From a virus, in UHGV virus genome UHGV-0073333: DNA of 15,124 nt, one strand, 5' to 3'. Numbering within the stretch: the stretch's first letter is position 1; each line of letters begins with the position of its first letter. The notes beneath the pieces are model-generated. The model was not told the origin of the DNA, did not search any database, and was given only the letters and a program-made list of their open reading frames with translations. Made by a program: the position numbers and the translations under genes. Below, one piece after another: positions 2,066 through 14,413 of the stretch.

Positions 2066-2429
2066 AAATGCAGAAATGGCGCTTAGCTCCGCAATCGGAG
2101 AGCAGGTGGCAAAGATTGCTGGTGCTGTGTGGATTCATAACCTTCATTCTACTGGTGAAGAGAAAATGGCAATTCAGACGCCAGAGGGACGCACCATTAC
2201 TACATCTCTGAAGCCGTCAGATGTTTGTGATCTGATTTGCGCATTCATGTACCCAGCAATGAGGACTGCCCACGGCGATAAGTGGAAACTTGCGACAACC
2301 GCTGAATTTGATATGTGGCTAAACAATGATGGCATGCTGACTGATTACGGAATAACCAAGTGGCAGATGCTGGTTAGCCATATCGCAAACGCTATAGACC
2401 ACGTGGGGTACGGTGATGCGAAACATTGA
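2058..2429 (+). CDS. Hypothetical protein (123 aa)
   Basis: ATG 2058 with GGGAGG at 2047-2052; overlaps upstream stop 2063-2065; ORF track. Confidence 0.6.
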   Translation: MRENAEMALSSAIGEQVAKIAGAVWIHNLHSTGEEKMAIQTPEGRTITTSLKPSDVCDLICAFMYPAMRTAHGDKWKLATTAEFDMWLNNDGMLTDYGITKWQMLVSHIANAIDHVGYGDAKH

Positions 2430-5172
2430 TCTTATCCGTCAGGTTATCAGTGCGTCTGAAAACAACTGGCCTCATGTGCTGGGCTGCCTGAACATAAATG
2501 TCCCTGACTCTCCGCGCCGTCATGCTCCCTGCCCTGCATGTGGGGGCAAAGATCGATTCCGGTTCGATGACAACGGGCGCGGTAGCTTCATCTGTAATCA
2601 GTGCGGCGCTGGTGATGGGCTGGATTTAATTAAACGCGTAAATAACTGCGACACAACAGAGGCGGCGCTTCTTGCCGCTGATGTTCTGGGTATTGATTAC
2701 CGGACAACGGAAACACCAGAAGCCACCAGCCAGAAACGGGAACAACTGGAAACCGAGCGCCAGCGACGCGAACAGGAGCGCCTGAAAAGGGCAGAGAAGG
2801 ACGAACAACAAAGACGGGATACGTTTTCCCGTCAGTTTGATGACATGCGCAGAAAGGCTGTAAACGGCAAATCTGATTATCTGGTTGCGAAAGGGGTAGG
2901 TGATTTTACATTCCCCGTGTTGCCCGATGGATCTCTGTTGCTGGCGCTGGTGGATAAATCCGGCGCAGTAACAGCAGCACAGACTATTACCTCACATGGT
3001 GAAAAAAGACTCCTGACAGGTTCAGCAAAGCGGGGGGCATATCACGCCATAAACGCACCAGAAACAACACAGAGCATCTTAATCGCAGAAGGGCTGGCAA
3101 CGGCATTATCTGCCCATTTAATTCGTCCAGAGGCGCTGACAGTGGCGGCGATTGATGCCGGGAACCTGTTATATGTCGCCCAGGTACTGCGGGATAAATT
3201 TCCTTCAGCACAAATCATCATTGCTGCGGATAACGACCACAGCGAAGGAAGACAAAACACGGGGAGAATAGCAGCAGAAAAAGCAGCTTTATCTGTTTCT
3301 GGATGGGTGGCATTACCCCCGACAGATCACAAAGCAGACTGGAATGATTACCACCAAAAACACGGCATTAAATGCGCCACAGAAGCGTTCAATAAGTCAA
3401 TGTACCAACCACAGGGTAATGGCGTGAAACAGGAGCCACAGACCATTGAGGGAAGCGATTTTAAGGTTATGGATACCGACCCACTGAAACCAAGAATAGA
3501 AAGCCGCGAGGATGGTATTTATTGGGTATCTCCGAGAGCTGACAGCCAGAGTGGAGAAATCATCAATAACGAAAGCTGGTTATGTTCTCCGTTAAGCGTT
3601 ATCGGTACTGGCAGAGACGATAAAGACCAGTATCTCATTCTTCGCTGGCTGTCGTTTGGTTCTGAAACGCCGACAACCGCTGCCATTCCACTGGCTGATA
3701 TTGGTGAACGTGAAGGATGGCGCACACTTAAAGCTGGTGGGGTAAATGTCACGACCAAAAGCAGCCTCAGAGCAATACTGGCAGACTGGCTACAACGCAG
3801 TGGCTCTCGTGAATTGTGGCGTGTTGCTCATGCCACTGGCTGGCAATGCGGAGCGTACATCATGCCTGATGGGGAAATCATCGGAACACCTGAAAATCCT
3901 GTGCTGTTCAGCGGGAGAAGCTCAGCCGCAGCCGGATATACCGTCTTAGGGAGCGCGAAAAGCTGGCGTGATAACGTGGCGCGTCTGGCCTTTGGTAACT
4001 ATTCAATGATGACCGGGATCGGCGCAGCACTGGCAGCGCCATTGATTGGGCTGGTGGGCGCTGACGGGTTCGGCATTCATTTCTATGAGCAGTCGAGCGC
4101 AGGGAAGACCACCACGGCAAACGTGGCGAGCAGCTTATACGGCAACCCTGATTTACTGCGGCTGACGTGGTACGGAACCGCGCTGGGGCTGGCAAATGAG
4201 GCCGCCGCCCACAATGACGGACTAATGCCGCTTGATGAAGTTGGTCAGGGCGCTGATCCTGTCAGCGTTTCACAGTCTGCCTATGCGTTATTTAACGGTG
4301 TAGGGAAACTGCAAGGCGCTAAAGATGGTGGAAACCGGGATCTAAAACGTTGGCGTACAGTGGCAATCAGCACCGGAGAAATGGATTTAGAAACATTTAT
4401 CGCTACTTCCGGGCGAAAAACCAAAGCCGGGCAACTGGTGCGACTGCTGAATATTCCGTTGAGTAAAGCAGTACGCTTTCACGATTACCAGAACGGAAAA
4501 CAGCACGCAGACGCACTGAAAGACGCTTACCAGCATCACCACGGCGCGTCCGGGCGTGAGTGGATTAAATGGCTGGCAGACCACCAGCAACAGGCTATTA
4601 AAACCGTTCGTGATTGCGAAAGCAGATGGAGAAGCCTGATCCCATCCGATTATGGTGAGCAGGTTCACCGTGTAGCCGCGCGATTTGCCATTCTGGAGGC
4701 CGCATTGTTGTTAGGCGAGGTTGTAACAGGCTGGGATGCTCAGACATGCCGTGATGCGATACAGCACAGCTATAACGCATGGTTGCGCGAGTTCGGCACA
4801 GGTAACAAAGAGCATCAGCAGATTATTGAACAAACGGAGGCATTTCTTAATGCCTATGGGCTTAGCCGTTTTGCACCATTTCCATACAGCCCGGCAGATT
4901 TGCCCATCAAAGATTTAGCCGGATACCGTCAGCGTGGAGAACATGACGAAAGCCCAATGATTTTCTACACATTCCCGGCCACATTTGAAAAGGAGATCGC
5001 ATGTGGTTTCAACGCAAAACAGTTTGCTGAAGTGTTGAAAAAAGCCGGGATGCTAACCCCACCAAACAGCGGTCGTGGATACCAAAGAAAATCACCACGT
5101 ATTCAGGGACGACAAATAAACGTTTATGTACTCAATTACCAGCCAGGAGATTATAACTCATCTGAAGAATGA
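2416..5172 (+). CDS. Bifunctional primase-helicase replication initiator, P4 alpha-like (zinc ribbon + TOPRIM + P-loop NTPase)
   Basis: 918-aa ORF; CxxC...CxxC zinc ribbon (CPACGG...CNQCG); TOPRIM signatures (IAEG glutamate, AADND DxD); Walker A-like SSAGKTT; start ATG 2416 (GTG 2413 also possible) overlapping the upstream stop. Confidence 0.88.
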   Translation: MRNIDLIRQVISASENNWPHVLGCLNINVPDSPRRHAPCPACGGKDRFRFDDNGRGSFICNQCGAGDGLDLIKRVNNCDTTEAALLAADVLGIDYRTTETPEATSQKREQLETERQRREQERLKRAEKDEQQRRDTFSRQFDDMRRKAVNGKSDYLVAKGVGDFTFPVLPDGSLLLALVDKSGAVTAAQTITSHGEKRLLTGSAKRGAYHAINAPETTQSILIAEGLATALSAHLIRPEALTVAAIDAGNLLYVAQVLRDKFPSAQIIIAADNDHSEGRQNTGRIAAEKAALSVSGWVALPPTDHKADWNDYHQKHGIKCATEAFNKSMYQPQGNGVKQEPQTIEGSDFKVMDTDPLKPRIESREDGIYWVSPRADSQSGEIINNESWLCSPLSVIGTGRDDKDQYLILRWLSFGSETPTTAAIPLADIGEREGWRTLKAGGVNVTTKSSLRAILADWLQRSGSRELWRVAHATGWQCGAYIMPDGEIIGTPENPVLFSGRSSAAAGYTVLGSAKSWRDNVARLAFGNYSMMTGIGAALAAPLIGLVGADGFGIHFYEQSSAGKTTTANVASSLYGNPDLLRLTWYGTALGLANEAAAHNDGLMPLDEVGQGADPVSVSQSAYALFNGVGKLQGAKDGGNRDLKRWRTVAISTGEMDLETFIATSGRKTKAGQLVRLLNIPLSKAVRFHDYQNGKQHADALKDAYQHHHGASGREWIKWLADHQQQAIKTVRDCESRWRSLIPSDYGEQVHRVAARFAILEAALLLGEVVTGWDAQTCRDAIQHSYNAWLREFGTGNKEHQQIIEQTEAFLNAYGLSRFAPFPYSPADLPIKDLAGYRQRGEHDESPMIFYTFPATFEKEIACGFNAKQFAEVLKKAGMLTPPNSGRGYQRKSPRIQGRQINVYVLNYQPGDYNSSEE

Positions 5173-5194
5173 GCTTCTTCATGTGCGTAGAAAA

Positions 5195-5310
5195 GGTGTT
5201 GGTTCAGTTGGTTCAGTTGGTTCAATTTGTAAAGAGTATTGTTTTATAAGGATTTTATTCTTTTTATTGAACCAACACTGAACCAACAACACGGTATTTT
5301 GAACCAACAC
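5195..5310. repeat. Iteron cluster A: 3 tandem GTTGGTTCA 9-mers, AT-rich spacer, 3 inverted TGAACCAAC 9-mers; ori/crr-like
   Basis: Tandem 9-mers at 5198-5224; inverted copies at 5268-5276, 5279-5287, 5300-5308; 5195-5236 is a perfect 42-bp inverted copy of 13753-13794. Confidence 0.75.
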
Positions 5311-5358
5311 AATGTGACTGAATTGATGCGCACAACACCTGGCTGGCATCAGAGAGTG

Positions 5359-5934: not shown

Positions 5935-6396
5935 ATGGAACTAAAATTTATTGATAACCCTGTGCGATTACAGGCCTTTCTTAACGAGCCAGGCAATACC
6001 GAAAATATTGTTGAGCCGGGGCACACGTACTACATCAAGCCTGATGCGGTATATCTCGGCATCTACGAAGGATTAGTGCTGGCTGGCGTTCATGAAGTGC
6101 GTAACTTCTGGCATAGCGTTGTTGAATGCCATGCGGTGTACGACCCCGGATTCCGTGGTGAATATGCACTGCAAGGGCATCGATTATTCTGCAAATGGCT
6201 TCTCGAAAACTCACCATTCCTTAACAGCATTACCATGGTTCCTGACACCACCAAATACGGACGGGCAATTATCCGTTTGCTTGGCGCTACCCGTGTTGGT
6301 CACCTTGATGATGCTTATATCAGATGTGGTAAACCCGTCGGCGTAACGCTTTATCAGTTAACTCGGCAACAATATAAGGAATTCAGCGAATGTTAA
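5935..6396 (+). CDS. Hypothetical protein (153 aa); occupies the gp14 position of a P22-type ejection cassette
   Basis: ORF track; starts 16 nt after the upstream stop; its stop overlaps the next start (ATGTTAA). Confidence 0.7.
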   Translation: MELKFIDNPVRLQAFLNEPGNTENIVEPGHTYYIKPDAVYLGIYEGLVLAGVHEVRNFWHSVVECHAVYDPGFRGEYALQGHRLFCKWLLENSPFLNSITMVPDTTKYGRAIIRLLGATRVGHLDDAYIRCGKPVGVTLYQLTRQQYKEFSEC

Positions 6397-7043
6397 TTAC
6401 CCACATAGCTCATAAACATCTCAATCGTGCCGTATACGAAAAAGGCGGTGATGGTGGTGCCTCTAAAGCTCAGGCGAAGGCCCAGCAGCAGGCAATTGAT
6501 TTGCAGCGCGAGCAGTGGAATACGGTGATGAATAATCTCAAGCCGTATGCAGAAGTCGGATTGCCTGCTTTACAACAACTACAAGGACTGATGACTCTGG
6601 AAGGGCAGAATAAAGCCGCGAATGATTTCTTTGGTTCTGGTTTATATAAAACACAGGCAGATCAGGCCCGTTATCAGAACCTTGTCTCAGCAGAAGCTAC
6701 CGGGGGGCTTGGCTCAACAGCTACCAGTAACCAGTTATCTTCCATTGCGCCCATGCTTTATAACAATTGGCTTAGTGGGCAAATGCAAAATTATGGAAAC
6801 CTGCTAAATGTCGGGATGAATGCGGCATCAGGGCAGGCAACAGCAGGGCAACTCTTGCAGGGGCTTGGCGCTATTCGTGCAGGTCAGGCGCAGCAGCCAT
6901 CCAGTCTTGCGCGTGGTATTGGTGGGGCGGCATCAGGCGCTTTAGCGGGTGCGCAACTTGGTTCCGTTGTTCCGGGTATAGGTAATGTCGCCGGGGCTAT
7001 TGGTGGTGGGCTTATTGGTCTTGTTGGGGGGCTTGGATTCTAA
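6390..7043 (+). CDS. Gly/Gln-rich protein (217 aa) with a glycine-zipper hydrophobic C-terminus; ejection-protein-like (gp7-like by position and size)
   Basis: ORF track; C-terminal GGLIGLVGGLGF; TAATG overlap with the next gene. Confidence 0.7.
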   Translation: MLITHIAHKHLNRAVYEKGGDGGASKAQAKAQQQAIDLQREQWNTVMNNLKPYAEVGLPALQQLQGLMTLEGQNKAANDFFGSGLYKTQADQARYQNLVSAEATGGLGSTATSNQLSSIAPMLYNNWLSGQMQNYGNLLNVGMNAASGQATAGQLLQGLGAIRAGQAQQPSSLARGIGGAASGALAGAQLGSVVPGIGNVAGAIGGGLIGLVGGLGF

Positions 7044-8464
7044 TGGCGACATGGCAACTTGGCGGGCTGCCTAGCATGGCACCGCAAAATGATAATGCTC
7101 CTCGTTCTTCCGTTCCTCAGCCTGTGCAGTATCAGCAGCAGCCAAACGTAGGTTTAATGGCGCTACAGGGGCTAAGAGGCGTTGCTGAGATTAATCAGCA
7201 GGCACGTCAACAACAGCGTAAAGCAGAGTTTCAGAAAGCATATGCCGGGGCTTTTGAGTCTGGAGACAGAAACAAAATGCGCAGTCTTATTTCTGAGTAT
7301 CCAGAAGAATTTGAAAGCGTTCAGAAAGGGATGGGCTTTATTGATGACGACCAGAGAAATTCTATTGGTCATCTTGCGACTAGTGCTCAAATCGCATCTT
7401 CGCTCGGAACTGGGGCATTTGGAAAATTCATAGCAGATAACGAAGATGAAATGCGTCGCTTGGGAATTTCTCCTGAGTCTGTTGCCGAAATGCATGTTAA
7501 TGATCCACAGGGATTCCAGCGGCTTGCTGGTAGTATGGCACTGTTTTCTCTCGGTCATGAGAAGTATTTCGATATCAAAGATCAAATGGAAGGTCGGGAT
7601 ATTGAGCGTGGCAAGTTGGCAGAAACAATCCGCAGCAATCAGGCTGGCGAAGCACTTCAGGCGAGAGGGCAGGATATTAGCCGAGCAAATGCGTTAACGT
7701 CAGCATATGCACCAACAGCAGCAATGCAGAATTACAATCAGTACGCTCAAATGTTAAAGGCGGATCCAGAGGGGGCGGCGGCATTTGCGGCAGCGGCTGG
7801 AATTAATACAAACGCCAAAAAATTAATGAGTGTTAGAGAAAACGATGATGGCACTGTCACAAAATACTACACAGACGGAAGTGAAGAGCAGGGAAAACTA
7901 AACCAGCCAATATCTGGAGATGGGTTTCGTCCAATAGCTTTGCCAACAGCCCAAAAGATCATGGAAAAGTCGCCAGAAGGGGCTAAAAAAGCTGCTGGAT
8001 TTGCATACAGGGTTAGGGATGCTCTTGATTCAATAGATACACTGAAAGACCAGCTTAGCCCACAGCGAGTGGCGATCATTAATAATGCTTTGGGTAATGG
8101 GACGCTGGCTAACTTAACGCTCAGCCCAATAGAGCAGCAATACGTTGTTAATGCTAATGACGCAATAATGGCAATACTCCGTCAGGAAACAGGGGCATCT
8201 ATCCTACCAGCTGAAATGTCCAAATATTATCAAATGTATTTCCCTCAGCCTGGTGATTCCACAAAAACCATTGATACCAAGCGCCGGAAGATGGAAAACC
8301 AGTTCAATTCGCTGAAAGCTGCTTCTGGTCGAGCTTATGATGCTTTGCGGGTTATTTCAGCAGTTGACAGAGGAACTTCTTCTTCGTCGCAGACATTGCC
8401 GCAATCTGAGCAGGTATCACAGCCAGCAGCCAGCAGTAATTTTTCTTCACTATGGGGTGATTAA
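7043..8464 (+). CDS. Low-complexity Gln/Ala-rich protein (473 aa); ejection/internal virion protein-like (gp20-like by position and size)
   Basis: ORF track; translationally coupled on both sides; no enzymatic motifs seen. Confidence 0.78.
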   Translation: MATWQLGGLPSMAPQNDNAPRSSVPQPVQYQQQPNVGLMALQGLRGVAEINQQARQQQRKAEFQKAYAGAFESGDRNKMRSLISEYPEEFESVQKGMGFIDDDQRNSIGHLATSAQIASSLGTGAFGKFIADNEDEMRRLGISPESVAEMHVNDPQGFQRLAGSMALFSLGHEKYFDIKDQMEGRDIERGKLAETIRSNQAGEALQARGQDISRANALTSAYAPTAAMQNYNQYAQMLKADPEGAAAFAAAAGINTNAKKLMSVRENDDGTVTKYYTDGSEEQGKLNQPISGDGFRPIALPTAQKIMEKSPEGAKKAAGFAYRVRDALDSIDTLKDQLSPQRVAIINNALGNGTLANLTLSPIEQQYVVNANDAIMAILRQETGASILPAEMSKYYQMYFPQPGDSTKTIDTKRRKMENQFNSLKAASGRAYDALRVISAVDRGTSSSSQTLPQSEQVSQPAASSNFSSLWGD

Positions 8465-10143
8465 TGGCTAAAGCATGGAAAGATGTTATCGCTTCTCCAC
8501 AGTATCAGGCGTTAGCACCAGAACAAAAAGCGCAGGCTCAAGAGCAATACTTCAATGAAGTCGTGGCCCCGCAAGCCGGAGAAAGTGTAGAGCAGGCTAA
8601 GCAGGCTTTTTATGCTGCCTATCCACTACCATCAACGAATGAAATAGACCGATCCCAATCAGCAACTCAAAATATTCAACATACATCATCTGATAATTCT
8701 CTTGCGTCAGGGTATGCAAAGTTAGCTACTCAGCAAAGAGAGGGGCTTGAGCGTTCAGCAGAACAGGGAGCCAGTCTTGGGGCTGCGATGCGCGATGCTA
8801 TAACAGGCGAAAGCCGAATGACTCCAGAGATGGAGAGACTGCAAAATGTCGCCTCTGCCCCAGAATTGAACTCACTAAGCATGGATGCCCTAAAGGCTGG
8901 ATGGTCTCAACTTTTCGGCTCTGACGCGTCTCAGGAAAAGATTCTTCAGGGAATGGGGGCGACATTAAGGCAGGATGAGAAGGGGAATACTATCGTTTCT
9001 CTGCCATCAGGTGATTATGCCCTGAACAAGCCGGGTTTATCACCGCAAGACCTGACTTCGTTTCTTGCTAATGCGTTGGCGTTTACACCAGCGGGCAGGG
9101 CTGGAACGGTGCTTGGTGCCATAGGAAAATCAGCAGCTACAGATTTAGCACTACAGGGAGCCACCAGCCTTGCTGGTGGAGAAGATATTGATCCGTTACA
9201 AACGGTAATTTCTGCTGGCATTGGTGGTATTGGTAAGGGGCTGGAAAATACAGCGAGTGCGGTTTCGAGGGCTGTTCGTGGTGATATGTCGCCTGAAGCA
9301 AAGGCTGCTGTCGACTTTGCATCGGAAAGAAATCTGCCGTTAATGACCAGTGACATGCTGAAAGATAAAACCTTTATGCAGAGTCAGGCTCAGACATTAG
9401 GCGAAAGAGTTCCTTTTTTTGGAACCGGTAAGAATCGGCTGAATCAACAACAAGCACGAGAAAATTTAGTCAGAACATTTAGCGATGGTCTGGGTGGCAT
9501 TTCTGATAAACAGCTTTATGAATCTGCGACTAAAGGGCAACAAAAATTCATTGAGGCAGCAGGAAAGCGATATAACCGCATAATTGACGCTATGGGGGAT
9601 ACCCCTGTCGATCTCTCAAACACGGTAAAAGCTATCGACAATCAGATTGCCGTGTTAAGCCGCCCGGGCAAATCTCAGGATAGAGCCGCGGTAAAAGTCT
9701 TGCAGCAATTTAAAGACGATATCACCAGCGGACCAAATGACCTGCGTCTGGCGAGGGAAAACAGAACCGATCTTCGAAAGCGATTTATGGCGTCATCTGA
9801 CACTGTTGATAAAGATACGCTCCAGAAAGCCAGCGATATTATCTACAAGGCATATACGGCGGATATGAAAAAAGCCGTAGCCAAAAATCTTGGAGCAGAC
9901 GAAGCCATTAATATGGCAAGGGTTGATCGCTCATGGTCTAAATTCAATGACATGATGGGAAGAACGCGCGTTCAAAAGGCAATAGCCAGCGGCAAGGCCA
10001 CGCCTGAGGATGTAACAAAACTCGTTTTTAGCCAAAGCCCATCAGAACGTTCTCAGCTTTACAGGCTTCTGGGTGACAATGGTAGGGAAAAAGCACCAGC
10101 AGCCATAGCTGCTGCGTTAGGCAAAACGCACGAGCGGCCATAG
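8464..10143 (+). CDS. Low-complexity Ala/Gln-rich protein (559 aa); ejection/internal virion protein-like (gp16-like by position)
   Basis: ORF track; ATG 8464 overlaps upstream stop (TAATG), GGGGTG Shine-Dalgarno-like sequence at 8451-8456. Confidence 0.78.
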   Translation: MAKAWKDVIASPQYQALAPEQKAQAQEQYFNEVVAPQAGESVEQAKQAFYAAYPLPSTNEIDRSQSATQNIQHTSSDNSLASGYAKLATQQREGLERSAEQGASLGAAMRDAITGESRMTPEMERLQNVASAPELNSLSMDALKAGWSQLFGSDASQEKILQGMGATLRQDEKGNTIVSLPSGDYALNKPGLSPQDLTSFLANALAFTPAGRAGTVLGAIGKSAATDLALQGATSLAGGEDIDPLQTVISAGIGGIGKGLENTASAVSRAVRGDMSPEAKAAVDFASERNLPLMTSDMLKDKTFMQSQAQTLGERVPFFGTGKNRLNQQQARENLVRTFSDGLGGISDKQLYESATKGQQKFIEAAGKRYNRIIDAMGDTPVDLSNTVKAIDNQIAVLSRPGKSQDRAAVKVLQQFKDDITSGPNDLRLARENRTDLRKRFMASSDTVDKDTLQKASDIIYKAYTADMKKAVAKNLGADEAINMARVDRSWSKFNDMMGRTRVQKAIASGKATPEDVTKLVFSQSPSERSQLYRLLGDNGREKAPAAIAAALGKTHERP

Positions 10144-10604
10144 TTCAGAATGCTGTAGATAAGGCGACTGATCCGTCTGGAAATATCAGTGTTGAGAAGT
10201 TTATTAATGCGTTACACCGGAACAGGAAGCAATCAGCAACTTTCTTTAAAGGCGTACATGGAAAGGAACTGGACGGCGTTATTAAATACCTCAACGATAC
10301 AAGACACGCGGCAAAAGCGAACGTTCAAAACTTAAATGGTCAGCAGCTTTATGGATTGTTAGTTGGTGGTGGCATCATAAACGCAGCAGTATTAGCGGGG
10401 ATGCTAAAAACGGCTGCGTTTGTTGTTCCTGCTGCTGGTGCCGTAGGCGGAGCAGCGAAGGCATACGAAAGCCCTGTTATACGAAATGCCTTGTTACGTC
10501 TGGCAAATACGCCAAAAGGTAGCACAGCATATGACAGAGCGATCAGTACGGTCACACAATCGCTCACCAGAGTCGCACAGGCATCACAAAAAGAAGCTCA
10601 ATAA
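10086..10604 (+). other. Open frame of 172 codons with no canonical start, overlapping the 3' end of the 559-aa gene; probable frameshifted C-terminal extension or frameshift-disrupted gene
   Basis: Stop-free from 10086 to TAA 10602-10604; first ATG/GTG/TTG only at 10356; operon terminator sits after 10604, not after 10143; encodes a Gly/Ala-rich hydrophobic segment. Confidence 0.45.
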
Positions 10605-10606
10605 CT

Positions 10607-10631
10607 GGTTAGCCACGGATGGCTAATTTTT
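10607..10631 (+). terminator. Rho-independent terminator of the plus-strand cargo operon
   Basis: Stem TTAGCCA (10609-10615) / TGGCTAA (10620-10626), loop CGGA, then TTTTT at 10627-10631. Confidence 0.55.
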
Positions 10632-11042
10632 GTTCTTTGCTCTCATCCACAGGTAAAGAAGGGCAAGAACAAGACAAAAAACAGAGAATAGATAACCTAC
10701 CTCATATGATGCGCCAAAAAAATTAGCTATTGATACGGGCAAAAAAGCTGAAGCGATCAAAATTGAAAGGCAAAAAATAAGACCAGTAATATAGTTTATT
10801 AAATTCTTAAATGAGAAACGTTTTGCTTGATTTATGGTCTTAGCGAACGATCGCTTAACGACGGATAAAAGCAAATAGATGGCGACAGTTGCTAATGCCC
10901 CTTTCCACCAGTCTGGATATAGTTTTGCGACAATCAGACCAAGGAAAACCATGATGACAGCCTGAGCATTCACACCAACCCTCCCTTTAGCGTTGTTTAG
11001 ATTGGCAATCATCATATATCCAAGACATGGCATTTGGTACAT
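10623..11042 (-). CDS. Small inner-membrane protein (about 139 aa, about 4 hydrophobic helices); start uncertain
   Basis: ORF track 10623..11210 begins at a TTG; first ATG is at 11042; strongly hydrophobic; AT-rich; no clear Shine-Dalgarno sequence. Confidence 0.5.
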   Translation of the reverse strand: MYQMPCLGYMMIANLNNAKGRVGVNAQAVIMVFLGLIVAKLYPDWWKGALATVAIYLLLSVVKRSFAKTINQAKRFSFKNLINYITGLIFCLSILIASAFLPVSIANFFGASYEVGYLFSVFCLVLALLYLWMRAKNKN

Positions 11043-11165
11043 AGCTTGGGTCGGGATTTCAAATCCGCCCCCGTTGATGGGGTCGTTACAGTACGCGCAT
11101 ATCCGCTTTATGTGAAACAGGAAGATTTTTCTGATATCACTGCCACAGCAAAACACCAATTTCGA

Positions 11166-11181
11166 GACAAGTACGCGCGCG
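11166..11181. repeat. 16-bp direct repeat GACAAGTACGCGCGCG, copy 1
   Basis: Exact copy at 11452-11467; partial third copy ACAGTACGCGCA at 11088-11099. Confidence 0.6.
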
Positions 11182-11451
11182 AGGGGTATCAGTTGCAAAA
11201 AATTTTGCAACTACGTCCGACCAATACACACACGATGGCGGGGGATACCATAAAACTGTTCTCTACATGAGACAGAGTGGTGGTGATGTGTTGATTATCG
11301 GCCTATATGCGCACAGGACGCGCTATGACAATGTTTTATGCGGGTACACCAATCACATGTATCTGGTGTGATAAATCGCGTTACATGACCTTTCATGTTG
11401 TGCTGGTGGTTATCACGACGTTCTGAATCTGGCTTTTGTCTGATATTTTGC

Positions 11452-11467
11452 GACAAGTACGCGCGCG
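11452..11467. repeat. 16-bp direct repeat GACAAGTACGCGCGCG, copy 2
   Basis: Exact match to 11166-11181, 286 bp apart, in a non-coding region. Confidence 0.6.
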
Positions 11468-11804
11468 TAACATCGAAATTATCGGATGGCGTATGTTGCT
11501 GGCAAGATAAAGTCGGCGTAATACAAAGGCGTTACTTGATAGCAGCAAGATTACAACAATGGTTGTTGAATTTGAGCGATGTAAGGAATTGATTTAGGGA
11601 GGCGCTGATGGCTAAAAAGTTCCACTACCAGCGGATGAATGCGCCAGCGATGGCCGTTTGGTAGTAAAAGAGGAGCCATTCCTCAATCAGTTGAATACAT
11701 TATGCCAACTAAATGGGTGGGGGCACTGTGTGGGTATTCAGCGGTGACGGTATTTTTTAAGCCAAGGACTATCCGTAGCAGGGGGACTCATTTTGAAATA
11801 TTTA

Positions 11805-12242
11805 TCATATGTAACTTATTATTTTAGATAAAGATTTCCAGTTAAAGAAAAAAGTTATCATTGATATAATCAAATATGCCCCTGCGAGTAGCAGGGCATA
11901 ATAATCCAGAGGCAGATTGCTGACAACAGGGGCAAACATCGAGATCATTGCTAATAGGCAGGCTGTGATCAGCGTAGTTCCTGTATCAAAAAGCCCCTCA
12001 ATAATGCCTTTTAGTACTCCGTTACTTTTTAGAGCGCCTACAATTCCCTTTGAACTATCAAAGCTACTTAGCATGGTGACTGATGCCAAAACAAAACCAA
12101 AGAGAACTCCAGAAATAGTTGAAAGAGCACCAGCAGCCGAAATGACAGCATTGTGATCTAGGTCGTGTAAAAAATGGGCACCAGCAATAGCCATAGCTAG
12201 AGCAAACAATGACTTGGCAGCAAACAATTTCCGAGAACTCAT
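11805..12242 (-). CDS. Small membrane protein (145 aa, 3-4 hydrophobic helices); second gene of the two-gene cargo operon
   Basis: ORF track; ATG with AGGA 7 nt upstream, 12 nt after the stop of the 361-aa gene; AT-rich. Confidence 0.75.
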   Translation of the reverse strand: MSSRKLFAAKSLFALAMAIAGAHFLHDLDHNAVISAAGALSTISGVLFGFVLASVTMLSSFDSSKGIVGALKSNGVLKGIIEGLFDTGTTLITACLLAMISMFAPVVSNLPLDYYALLLAGAYLIISMITFFFNWKSLSKIISYI

Positions 12243-12254
12243 AATGTATTCCTG

Positions 12255-13340
12255 TTACGTTTGACTAACCAAATAGTACTGGGTTAGATACCTAAGGTTG
12301 TCATTCTTTGCTTGTAGCATAGCATTTTTAACGTCAGTATCGGTCGGATACCCATCTGCTTGGATAGGCACCATCTTCTTTACCGTAAGAACTTCGTCTA
12401 CAAGACTTTTCTTCTTTTTATCGCCCTGAGCAACAACATTTGCTTTCTCAAAAGTTAAACGACCATCACCACCAGGGAACTTTTCTAGCATCTCCTTAAG
12501 GCTTTTTTTAACGTCATCCTCAAGCCATCCCTTTGCTTTTCTTTTTAATGGAGAATGTCCGCGTAACGAAATAGTCAGGTGGCTTGAACTGGTGCCTCTG
12601 ATCATCTCAATCATCTGATTCGCGAACATTCCATCGAGTTGATACTGTGCGGCATTGAAGTTTCTTGGGATGGCCACAGAAATCTCGCAGCTTCTTAGAT
12701 TGGATCCAGTTTCGAGTAGTTCTTTGATGCTTTCTTCTTTCCAAATGGCTTCAAAAGAAACAGGGACTCCGCGATCACTGGAGTTGAAAAGAAGGAAGGC
12801 TAAGTCACTATGGCGTGGACCTAAATGATTTAAAGACAATACTAGAATGTCTGTCTGAGGATAATAAATAAAGTATGTACGTTCTGAAAGAGTCTTTGCC
12901 CCGGCTAGAGGGATTTTCTCTTCCACCCACTCTTTATCTGTAATATATGCCAGTGTTGCGCTTTTTCTTCTTCGAGACATGAATCCGAAGTAGGAGCCAT
13001 CCTCGGGTGAGATGTCTAGAAAATGAATTTTAAGTTCTCTTTCACCAAAGTCTGCATAGTGGGTCATCTTGAAGTCTTTAGAACACCGATCATACAGATT
13101 TTTAAAGGCCTCTGCGGTTAACCCCTTGTTACTAGTGCGAATATTCTCAGAGCTTGTGTAAAAGCCCACCCTTACAGATTTCAAACTTTGATCTTTTGGT
13201 GCCACAGTCATTTGAGCTCCATTGTACTCTGCGATAGTTTTTGCACACCTTGAAATCAAAATCTCCATGTCAGTCACGAGAAAATAACTATGGATGAAAC
13301 CCATCAAAGGCATTGAATACAGGTGGCTTTTGAGAATCAT
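12255..13340 (-). CDS. Hypothetical soluble protein (361 aa), no recognisable catalytic motif; first gene of the two-gene cargo operon
   Basis: ORF track; about 40% GC by eye and AGA/AGG arginine codons suggest horizontal acquisition. Confidence 0.8.
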   Translation of the reverse strand: MILKSHLYSMPLMGFIHSYFLVTDMEILISRCAKTIAEYNGAQMTVAPKDQSLKSVRVGFYTSSENIRTSNKGLTAEAFKNLYDRCSKDFKMTHYADFGERELKIHFLDISPEDGSYFGFMSRRRKSATLAYITDKEWVEEKIPLAGAKTLSERTYFIYYPQTDILVLSLNHLGPRHSDLAFLLFNSSDRGVPVSFEAIWKEESIKELLETGSNLRSCEISVAIPRNFNAAQYQLDGMFANQMIEMIRGTSSSHLTISLRGHSPLKRKAKGWLEDDVKKSLKEMLEKFPGGDGRLTFEKANVVAQGDKKKKSLVDEVLTVKKMVPIQADGYPTDTDVKNAMLQAKNDNLRYLTQYYLVSQT

Positions 13341-13689
13341 CCTAACCTGGTGACGGTGGTTCGCATATCCTGATGGATGATCAGTGATTAATCAATGCGC
13401 CAAGCAGATGTGTCTATGTGTTTGTTAATCATTGCATGACAGTAGATCGACATGGGAGATCACGTTATATAGTTGAATTGTTAGGATATCCATGCACCGA
13501 TCAACTGACTAGGCTGATGTGCTTTTTAGCAGGTGCCATATAGTAGTTAGGCGGTTCTGTGAAATGATTACTGTTCCAGCATAACTGCGGCATAAAGCGG
13601 TGCTATATAAGCTATTTGCTGGCGGATTTAGTCTTCACCGTTCATATATGTAGTGACTATTTGACAGAGTGTTAGTTCACGGACACTTT

Positions 13690-13795
13690 TTGTTGGTTCA
13701 AAATGAGTTGATGTTGGTTCAATATTTTAGAAAAAACACAATAAAAACAACGCTCTTTACAAATTGAACCAACTGAACCAACTGAACCAACACCT
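13690..13795. repeat. Iteron cluster B (inverted copy of cluster A); ori/crr-like
   Basis: GTTGGTTCA at 13692-13700 and 13713-13721; three tandem TGAACCAAC at 13765-13791; 13753-13794 is the exact reverse complement of 5195-5236. Confidence 0.75.
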
Positions 13796-13827
13796 TTTTG
13801 CTTATCTATATAATCTGAGAGGCAGAA

Positions 13828-14115
13828 ATGATAAGGGACAGGAAAGCTGAAGAGCTGGAGTCAAAAGGGCTATACCGGAGAGCTGCCGCACGATGGGCAG
13901 AAGTCATGATGCTGGCAAATGGCGATAAAGAACGTGAACATGCAGCAAACAGGCGCTCTGAATGTATCCGTAAGGCGGCACGCCCACCAGCAACTACAGA
14001 CAGATTCGGAGATTTAAGACAGGCAGTTAAGCGAACTCATTCGGCTCTTGGTATGGATGAGGAAGCGAGAGGGTACTTCAGGCGTTATCGCGATAAAGAT
14101 TGCCAGAGACAGTAA
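13828..14115 (+). CDS. Small basic protein (95 aa), PerC-like transcriptional regulator (family assignment tentative)
   Basis: ATG 13828 with GAGAGG at 13817-13822; TATAAT at 13809-13814; N-terminal pattern AEELESKGLYRRAAARW recalls the PerC/Pch family. Confidence 0.6.
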   Translation: MIRDRKAEELESKGLYRRAAARWAEVMMLANGDKEREHAANRRSECIRKAARPPATTDRFGDLRQAVKRTHSALGMDEEARGYFRRYRDKDCQRQ

Positions 14116-14170: not shown

Positions 14171-14413
14171 AATGGTTTTAGGTACATTCCTCAAATTGAG
14201 GTTTCCGAAAATATCAGCGGGTTAGCGATTAATCTGGCGAGTAATTAAACTGCGAAAATTTCGTAGGGGGTTACGAAAATTTCGTAGGTCTACTCATGGT
14301 TTAGGCTTACTTTCCCGACATCCCCCAATGGGGGGGTCGAAATAATCAATGGGTTAGGCTTACCTCCCCCCATTTCCTGCATTGCAGGTTTTCGAAAGAA
14401 TCAATGGGTTAGG
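14171..14413. repeat. Four direct copies of ATGG(G)TT(T)AGG in the integrase-upstream region; candidate arm-type or operator sites
   Basis: Copies at 14171-14185, 14295-14310, 14344-14358, 14399-14413; the last two are an identical 15-mer AATCAATGGGTTAGG 55 bp apart. Confidence 0.5.
14253..14288. promoter_or_regulatory. Tandem palindromic operator-like sites CGAAAATTTCGTAGG x2, 21-bp period
   Basis: Exact 15-mers at 14253-14267 and 14274-14288; same core as the palindrome at 5418-5434. Confidence 0.4.

Follow-up and report, generated by a model that had tools for sequence, protein, structure and literature searches.

The stretch analysed here, hereafter the window, comprises the whole 15,124 nucleotides of the virus genome UHGV-0073333 and is identical to Escherichia coli ABU 83972 (NC_017631.1). 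It lies in an integrative island with an integrase, a primase and late genes, in which a 760-bp region (11043-11804) separates minus-strand cargo genes. The present work concerns this region and, above all, its left part, 11046-11476, a conserved non-coding module containing several short same-strand copies of a segment of terS, the phage small-terminase gene. Judged from sequence comparison, the module is part of the island backbone and a DNA element that acts in cis. It is tentatively read as a pac-type packaging signal borrowed from P22-like helper phages, with doubt still slightly outweighing confidence.

A conserved non-coding module

Alignment of loci with different neighbours delimited a conserved block running from about 10971 to 11476, with unrelated, swapped genes on both sides. 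The features of the module are as follows.

11046..11476, no strand assigned: conserved non-coding backbone module found by comparison, the proposed packaging-signal region
11054..11084, no strand assigned: palindrome GGATTTCAAATCC at 11054-11066, then hairpin CCCCCGTTGATGGGG, at the left end of the module
11085..11099, plus strand: partial motif copy TTACAGTACGCGCAT (core ACAGTACGCGCA at 11088-11099), invariant in 8 of 9 variants
11121..11142, plus strand: the window's best match to the annotated P22 pac, 16 of 22 positions (GAAGATTTTTCTGATATCACTG vs GAAGATTTATCTGAAGTCGTTA), 16 nt upstream of copy 1
11159..11181, plus strand: terS-derived motif copy 1, ATTTCGAGACAAGTACGCGCGCG, with terS homology extending about 15 nt further upstream, from 11140
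11191..11212, no strand assigned: perfect 22-bp palindrome with 10+10 arms and a 2-nt spacer, AGTTGCAAAA-AA-TTTTGCAACT, with a central A6T4 tract
11219..11234, plus strand: degenerate motif copy GACCAATACACACACG, which is GACCAGTACGCACACG or GACTAGTACGCGCACG in relatives
11445..11467, plus strand: terS-derived motif copy 2, ATTTTGCGACAAGTACGCGCGCG, marking where the universally conserved block ends on the right

Of 5426 complete E. coli genomes, about 545 have the left part of the region, with 95-97% identity, and just 38 have the whole 760 bp. In strain CH10508 (locus L349), positions 11046-11512 are kept without the promoter and ribosome-binding part at 10971-11045 and without the minus-strand cargo gene, so the module is not simply the leader of that gene; it also survives in relics from which the rest of the island is gone (L002). 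The module belongs to the island backbone, with a variable cargo slot on either side, and can be present where the adjacent cargo gene is missing, which does not fit the earlier suggestion that it forms part of a defence cargo.

The Prokaryotic Genome Annotation Pipeline (PGAP) places no annotation in the 760-bp region. Between relatives, 1-nt indels alter the frame of the longest open reading frame (ORF), 11034..11270, and these indels rule out protein coding; Pfam gave no match for either of the two longer ORFs tested. The preliminary description, in which the region was already called non-coding, is borne out by these results, and the direct repeats, partial copy, palindromes and micro-ORF with its Shine-Dalgarno (SD) sequence all lie where it had placed them. 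The near-palindrome that it gave at 11193-11210 is real as well, being part of the perfect inverted repeat at 11191-11212, the arms of which are invariant among relatives while the centre varies; this palindrome may be a protein-binding site or a bend. No compensatory changes were seen in the palindrome and hairpin at 11054..11084.

Several other identities were considered for the region and set aside. A tRNA or att (attachment site) remnant at GGATTTCAAATCC was dismissed when ARAGORN gave no tRNA. An oriT or other plasmid element was rejected because the sole match among 72,556 plasmid records was a mislabelled 4.9-Mb E. coli chromosome. Comparison of 10900-11950 with 50,697 phage records by blastn gave no match at E<=1e-5. 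Reading the sequence around the repeats by eye revealed no conserved sigma-54 or P2 Ogr/Delta-type promoter motif.

Repeats and their counterpart in terS

The 16-bp sequence GACAAGTACGCGCGCG occurs at 11166-11181 and 11452-11467; with up to 3 mismatches allowed, it has 2 matches vs 0.05 expected in shuffles. The direct repeat is longer than first noted, since 21 of 23 bases agree between 11159-11181 and 11445-11467. Among relatives, copy 1 varies solely at N (A, T or G) and M (A or C) of the common pattern, ATTTYGNGACMAGTACGCGCGCG, and copy 2 has about 45 nt in common with a further copy downstream of perC in related islands. Such extra copies of the 23-45-nt unit always lie on the plus strand (the one just downstream of perC is present in, e.g., L012, L002 and L059), and altogether the islands hold 2-4 or more motif copies on the same strand, whereas phage loci hold a single copy, in terS. 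The repeats are therefore conserved in related elements, whereas their absence or lack of conservation there is what the preliminary description had named as speaking against it.

Additionally, in islands of a more distant group, with a primase about 74% identical, the 23-nt motif is found about 150 nt upstream of a cluster of c4-a1b1, isrK and C4 RNA, beside two small hairpins (L022 11223-11238, L045 42-57 and L060 128-143); the island of the window has no copy there.

The pattern ATTTYGNGACMAGTACGCGCGCG is the nucleotide image of the FRD(K/Q)YAR(A) segment encoded by genes of the Sf6_terminase family, PF20901. Two cross-phylum matches within small-terminase genes encoding ...EFRDQYARAREAQ... 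led to this Pfam family, and many of the IMG/VR matches to the 16-mer are intact genes belonging to it. Gene 1 of Sf6 reads GATTTTCGCGACAAGTACGCG at this place (GAT TTT CGC GAC AAG TAC GCG, codons 55-61). With the terS genes of E. coli prophages, copy 1 has about 38 nt in common; for the perC-side copy the figure is about 40 nt, among them CTGGCTGGC, coding for RWLA. The 18-nt core agrees with Sf6-type terS at precisely those codons that are constrained at the nucleotide level.

This constraint was measured in 40 unique Sf6-type terS genes, retrieved with degenerate protein patterns, as the fraction, in each codon column, of same-amino-acid pairs with different codons. The synonymous difference was 0.00 at F56, D58 and Y60 and 0.14 at A61, compared with a gene mean of 0.38 and with 0.36-0.50 in the other F, D and Y columns. 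GAC and TAC are not the more frequent synonyms in E. coli. The lack of any synonymous change at F56, D58 and Y60 indicates constraint on the DNA itself. At the same time, codon R57 (0.56) and the first position of codon K/Q59 are free to vary, and it is there (N and M), and almost nowhere else, that the island copies vary; the codons beyond GCG are unconstrained (0.51-0.62), and from that point the island copies depart from E. coli terS. Codons 56-61, at the end of the DNA-binding domain, make up one of the two most constrained six-codon windows of terS, the other being codons 70-77.

In the same gene set (L101, L103-L185), codons 9-18 are, like codons 70-77, strongly depleted in synonymous variation, and the 70-77 patch (IFEEIF) forms an 8/9 inverted repeat with a 6-nt spacer; each of these two patches could be part of pac or of another cis element. 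A palindrome in the window, AATTTCGTAGGGGGTTACGAAAAT at 14257-14280, lies downstream of perC, roughly where related islands have their extra motif copy, and loosely resembles the inverted-repeat architecture of the second constrained patch, ATTTTCGAAGAGATATTCGAAATT, with an agreement of 16/24 that is not significant.

A parallel control with P22-type terS placed none of 51 variable sites within 266-299, the interval around the annotated P22 pac (268-289), among 60 distinct sequences; the control is weakly informative because the 80 loci retrieved encode nearly identical proteins.

According to its annotation the island has neither terminase nor capsid genes, and a hidden Markov model (HMM) of TerS, run on six-frame translations of the window, gave only matches of about 7 bits at the short motif copies. 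No other part of the block matched terS neighbourhoods, and a wreck of a whole terS gene was ruled out by these two comparisons. Since a single short segment of terS is present, and is multiplied, the block is not a decayed terminase gene. The earlier suggestion of gene decay therefore stands insofar as the repeats are short terS-derived fragments, but they are not what is left of a gene once sited here. A wider form of this idea, in which the module is a functionless relic composed of hitch-hiking terS fragments and debris and only seems conserved through the recent spread of the islands in E. coli, is considered improbable. It would agree with a block identity of 95-98%, similar to that of some backbone neighbours (97.7% for the primase and 98.4% for the perC region in L003), and with the clear decay of the right part, 11477-11804. 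However, the module is kept across many mosaic contexts, including the relics already mentioned (L002), a lone short terS segment that has been multiplied is unlike gene decay, and independent non-coding arrays of the motif occur in distant phyla.

Those distant occurrences came from scans for exact matches only, from which the variability of the non-coding motif cannot be measured. With one genome taken per species, the 22-base pattern ATTTYGNGACMAGTACGCGCGCG gave 12 matches vs about 0.07 expected by chance; they span Acidobacteria and Alpha-, Beta- and Gammaproteobacteria, and 10 of the 12 lie outside any TerS-like ORF. Several belong to small elements (L095, L100, L097 and L090) that carry P4-type integrases, DUF3987 or AAA_25 helicases, or Mob_Pre, and lie there either at the end away from the integrase or 3' of the replication genes; three species-genome loci have, on the same strand and at a distance of 67-174 nt, a second, degenerate copy. 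Of 34 environmental sites in metagenomes, about 31 fall outside TerS-like ORFs, and 14 sites have TGA, TGC or TGG at the position of the terS Arg codon; arrays of 2-3 copies within 400 nt are present at 8 loci.

Viewed on its own, the non-genic motif reads (G)ATTTYGNGACCAGTACGCGCGCG(CG)AGG and is often present as 2-3 same-strand copies 50-250 nt apart. The non-coding loci with it (L093, L094, L098, L200, L222, L225, L247, L258 and L265) come from soil, peat and freshwater metagenomes and from genomes of Acidobacteria, Bradyrhizobium, Duganella and Rodentibacter, and TGN replaces the Arg codon of terS in half of the copies. No Rfam family was found at the motif in the window, the related loci or the environmental loci. 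An att core of a terS-targeting integrase was also considered and rejected: the copies are internal to the islands, and the cross-phylum loci have no flanking second copy except in nearby arrays. The HE-PICI paper gives other late-gene targets for integrases.

A non-coding RNA, whether structured or acting from the minus strand as an antisense to the conserved segment of helper terS mRNA in the style of C4/CI, was weighed as a further explanation and appears very unlikely. The island family does use the RNA regulators C4 and isrK, transcription from a promoter-like site at 11505..11478 would yield the complement of every motif copy, and 10 nt at 11172-11181 are perfectly complementary to 11460-11469. 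Nevertheless, an Rfam/Infernal covariance search of 11043-11804 gave no match at E<=1, the minimum free energy z-scores were -1.0 and -1.1 on the two strands, and 0 of 146 predicted pairs were compensatory (covariation term +0.38), a count of low power in a block that is 98% identical. The structured RNA proposed in the preliminary description thus found no support. As for antisense action, the promoter at 11505 is absent from L003-type islands, the copy that precedes isrK in other islands has the sense orientation relative to its operon, and silencing the terS of the helper would harm an island that has no terS of its own.

Island setting and cargo slots

Outside the 760-bp region, the window and the annotated record show the following arrangement.

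Island start, plus strand: tyrosine integrase, 67-aa helix-turn-helix (HTH) regulator, AntA/AntB protein and 'ash family' ORF, as in the annotated record
2413-5172: TOPRIM-DUF927 primase (PGAP annotation)
5197-5288: AT-rich stretch with GTTGGTTCA-type repeats (iterons), directly 3' of the primase
5935-10604: late zone with DUF2824 (gp14), P22_gp7, gp20-like and gp16-like ejection genes
10623 to 14115: small minus-strand gene (10623..), then the 760-bp region, two more minus-strand genes and PerC (13828-14115)

By its gene content, the island is a phage satellite of the type of Gram-negative phage-inducible chromosomal islands (GN-PICIs). The published GN-PICI layout consists of a Bro zone with C4/isrK RNAs, a primase, an ori and a late zone of captured helper genes (PMC10111431); int, alpA and pri-rep with ori have been described as well, together with PerC alleles in some E. 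coli PICIs (PMC6092414). In the present island, an integrase at one end is followed by an HTH regulator in the same (plus) orientation, the primase/replicase is followed by an iteron-type putative origin, and an AntA/B, isrK and C4 zone is accompanied by a late zone with P22_gp7, DUF2824, gp20-like and gp16-like genes. Its lack of a small terminase of its own is what characterises terS-less satellites.

The presence of P22-like ejection genes suggests that the helpers are P22-like (Lederbergvirus) phages. A full ejection cluster (DUF2824/gp14, gp7, gp20 and gp16) thus sits in a PICI-type island that has no capsid, portal or terminase genes; no description of ejection genes in satellites was found in the literature searched. 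The gp20 homologue is just 45-53% identical to any phage protein, with APSE phages giving the best match, and the gp16 homologue is frameshifted in the window (8464..10143, with the C-terminal end at 10356..10604). Near the island start, Rfam detected isrK (69 bits, L001 2903-2980) and the C4 antisense RNA (81 bits, L001 3043-3130) inside the 'ash family protein' coding sequence (CDS) of PGAP, and this ORF may be a spurious protein call overlying RNA genes; the first 29 positions of the window fall within the C4 RNA. The iteron-like region (5191-5312) has an inverted homologue upstream of perC at 13684-13798, with about 77-80% identity, here and in relatives, and the pair recalls the ori/crr of P4. 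A replication origin in the 760-bp region was rejected in favour of these iterons, at 5197-5288 right after the primase with the inverted copy at 13684-13798, as the better candidate.

The edges of the 760-bp region comprise the following features.

10971..11045, minus strand: conserved expression platform of the swapped cargo gene (candidate promoter, SD and GTG)
11040..11011, minus strand: candidate promoter GTACCA-18-TATGAT, weak and proximal, from a relaxed consensus scan only
10985..10980, minus strand: SD sequence GGGAGG
10973..10971, minus strand: GTG start
11505..11478, minus strand: sigma-70-like promoter match TTGCCA-16-GATAAT (10/12), reading into the module
11477..11664, no strand assigned: semi-conserved decaying sequence including the micro-ORF, in a subset of genomes at about 85-89% identity
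11608..11664: micro-ORF, with ATG at 11608 and GGGAGG at 11597-11602
11684..11670, minus strand: terminator-like hairpin GAGGAATGGCTCCTC followed by TTTTAC, downstream of the cargo operon 12255..13340 and 11805..12242

The right part, 11477-11804, looks like variable, decaying remnants. The promoter match at 11505..11478 is conserved in the L002 and L004 types and is absent from the L003 type, and a 29-codon ORF that is open in L004 is broken in the window. The sequence AAAGAGGAG at 11667-11675, taken earlier for an orphan SD sequence, proved to be the complement of the minus-strand terminator-like hairpin and T-run at 11684..11670. Translation of a functional leader peptide or small protein, either from the 18-codon micro-ORF or from the 78-codon ORF at 11034..11270, would account for the strong and correctly spaced SD sequence of the former and for the frame through copy 1, which is open in all variants examined. 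However, the start codon of the micro-ORF is not conserved (its ATG is GCG in L004), its changes include 4 non-synonymous vs 2 synonymous ones, the 78-codon ORF has no conserved start and changes frame in its N- and C-terminal parts through 1-nt indels, and Pfam gave no match. A peptide product, including the leader peptide raised in the preliminary description, is therefore the least credible of the explanations, with hardly any probability left to it.

At the left edge, the window, L003 and L004 have three unrelated cargo proteins that share just the GTG start, and the sequence is identical up to this codon; in L004, the shared GTG opens a product with a textbook signal peptide. Since the unrelated downstream proteins share only the GTG behind GGGAGG, 10971-11045 is assigned as the ribosome-binding site and start codon, and the minus-strand cargo gene is most likely 10623..10973, starting neither at the annotated ATG at 11012 nor at 11042, where the preliminary description had begun it (10623..11042). 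This arrangement indicates cassette exchange directly behind a fixed ribosome-binding site and start codon; these, and probably a promoter as well, are supplied independently by 10971-11045 to any left-hand cargo gene.

The cargo gene 10623..10973 encodes a small membrane protein. In this respect, and in its position and strand relative to the gp16 homologue, it resembles sieA of P22-like phages, which is expressed from the prophage and lies downstream of gene 16 on the opposite strand (PMC10883804); the likeness is one of position, strand and type of product. In contrast to the present locus, the PsieA promoter region of P22 is short (85 bp upstream suffices) and has no 430-bp conserved module with terS repeats.

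The right-hand slot, occupied here by the minus-strand genes 11805..12242 (145 aa) and 12255..13340 (361 aa), behaves as a second variable cargo hotspot, and other strains have ImmA/IrrE-family genes, HTH genes or other genes without known identity in it. Neither Pfam nor PADLOC gave a match for the cargo proteins, including the 145-aa and 361-aa products.

A regulatory role is certain for 10971-11045, so that the earlier attribution of the region to regulatory DNA holds for the left edge, with its ribosome-binding site, start codon and candidate promoter. For the module to its right, a reading as regulatory region and recombination anchor only is the main alternative, which we consider rather unlikely. 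The module would then express the left cargo gene as a platform of promoter, operator and long leader, and would provide the homology through which cassettes are exchanged at the two cargo hotspots; a regulator of the island or the helper would bind the repeats and the 22-bp palindrome as operators, and the likeness to terS would be historical. Several observations are consistent with this: the conserved sequence stops precisely at the SD and GTG of cargo genes that are unrelated, candidate minus-strand promoters exist at 11040..11011 and 11505..11478, the arms of the palindrome are invariant, the sharp mosaic boundaries at 10968-10971, 11476, 11512 and 11646 show recombination, and copy 2 and the perC-side copy bracket the right cargo slot as direct repeats of about 45 nt. 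On the other hand, L349 keeps 11046-11512 without the promoter, the ribosome-binding site and the cargo part, the coincidence of the repeat with constrained terS codons and its non-genic recurrence in other phyla would be left unexplained, and no island protein resembles the DNA-binding domain of TerS. The packaging signal is preferred for the module, at the tentative level given at the outset.

A candidate packaging signal

A satellite without terminase and capsid genes must borrow the cis-acting packaging signal of its helper. According to the packaging reading, the constrained stretch of terS would be pac or part of it, and the island copies would be bound by helper TerS and serve as the start of packaging. 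After induction and replication, the TerS ring of the helper would recognise the repeats as it does the pac within its own gene, TerL would cut near them, and island concatemers would be packaged by the headful mechanism into helper capsids. A ring-shaped TerS contacting several boxes on wrapped DNA would fit both the repetition of the motif and the A6T4 tract beside copy 1. Full-length Sf6-type terS genes are present in 232 E. coli genomes, which mark plausible helpers. The Sf6 pac is reported to be situated in gene 1, inside the portion coding for the DNA-binding domain. Recognition of a specific pac site by the TerS of Sf6 has been published (PMC7672466).

The match to the annotated P22 pac at 11121..11142 is suggestive as a lead only: judged against a null of block size, its P is about 0.0015, but with a null the size of the window 13% of trials reach 16 matches. 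Given this match, pac mimics of both the Sf6 and the P22 type might occur together in the E. coli module.

The closest published parallel is EcCICFT073, a terS-less E. coli PICI with two functional helper cos sites (PMC6092414). Both islands are terS-less satellites with the same PICI backbone of int, alpA, primase with ori, and PerC, and the two helper cos copies of EcCICFT073 likewise lie in non-coding DNA (PMC6092414); SaPIbov5-type cos SaPIs are grouped with it as terS-less PICIs carrying helper cos sites. However, the cos sites of EcCICFT073 belong to lambdoid helpers and were proven by deletion and plasmid transfer, whereas the signal of the present island would be of the pac type, for P22-like headful packagers. 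Moreover, unlike the signal of the cos PICIs, the proposed signal of the present island comes from within the coding sequence of helper terS and is multiplied 2-4 times. The motif resembles the pac sites of P22 gene 3 and Sf6 gene 1 in that it images a terS stretch without synonymous variation, the P22 pac being likewise variation-free; the phage site is single and within a coding gene, whereas the island site is non-coding and repeated. P4 is similar as an integrative satellite with an immunity RNA of the C4/CI family, an ori/crr-like iteron pair and a borrowed helper packaging site (P2 cos in P4, a candidate here), but the present island has no sid, delta or psu, has a primase of another lineage, and would use pac and not cos. 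The repeats were also considered as P4-style seqA/seqC targets of the C4 RNA and rejected, since the C4 loop, CCUUGUACGCC, is similar to the motif itself and not to its complement, the usable complementarity being about 5 nt or less; in this they differ from the seqA/seqC of P4.

A number of points weigh against a packaging signal. The block variants are about 98% identical, so that the repeats are not clearly more conserved than the rest of the module, and most of the 430-bp module (about 200 bp at 11235-11440, both palindromes and the hairpin) is not accounted for by packaging. After the shared core, E. coli terS continues as AAGGCAAC vs CGCGAGG in the island. The equally constrained terS patch at codons 70-77 has no counterpart in the module (best match 14/24, P=0.42), and the synonymous constraint in terS could serve another purpose, e.g., an mRNA feature. 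The motif copies upstream of isrK/C4 and downstream of perC would fit a pac, and would equally fit a regulatory or recombination site. Finally, binding of TerS to pac is weak or non-specific in vitro for Sf6, P22 and SPP1 (PMC9611059).

A broader claim, speculative and on balance doubtful, is that about 18-30 nt in terS (TTT NNN GAC NAG TAC GCG...) form the pac core of a very widespread TerS family and have been copied, often as arrays, into non-coding DNA of terS-less integrative satellites of Gamma-, Alpha- and Betaproteobacteria and Acidobacteria. If true, the motif would be a pan-phylum packaging-signal mimic and a sequence tag for unrecognised pac-type satellites.

At the local level, the annotation is corrected for the start of the cargo gene and for the 'ash family' CDS over RNA genes. 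If the packaging reading of the module is true, it would give a packaging route to common, uncharacterised PICI-like islands of E. coli, present in about 10% of complete genomes, which adjoin virulence loci such as vat and carry swappable cargo. It would likewise single out, purely from sequences, a possible pac core for Sf6-type small terminases, a family the DNA recognition of which has resisted in-vitro study, and would supply a short motif with which satellites and start points of lateral transduction could be flagged in many phyla. A pac-type counterpart of the helper cos sites in terS-less PICIs would be a new form of a known strategy, and the principle that a satellite borrows the packaging site of its helper would be extended from cos phages to P22-like headful phages.

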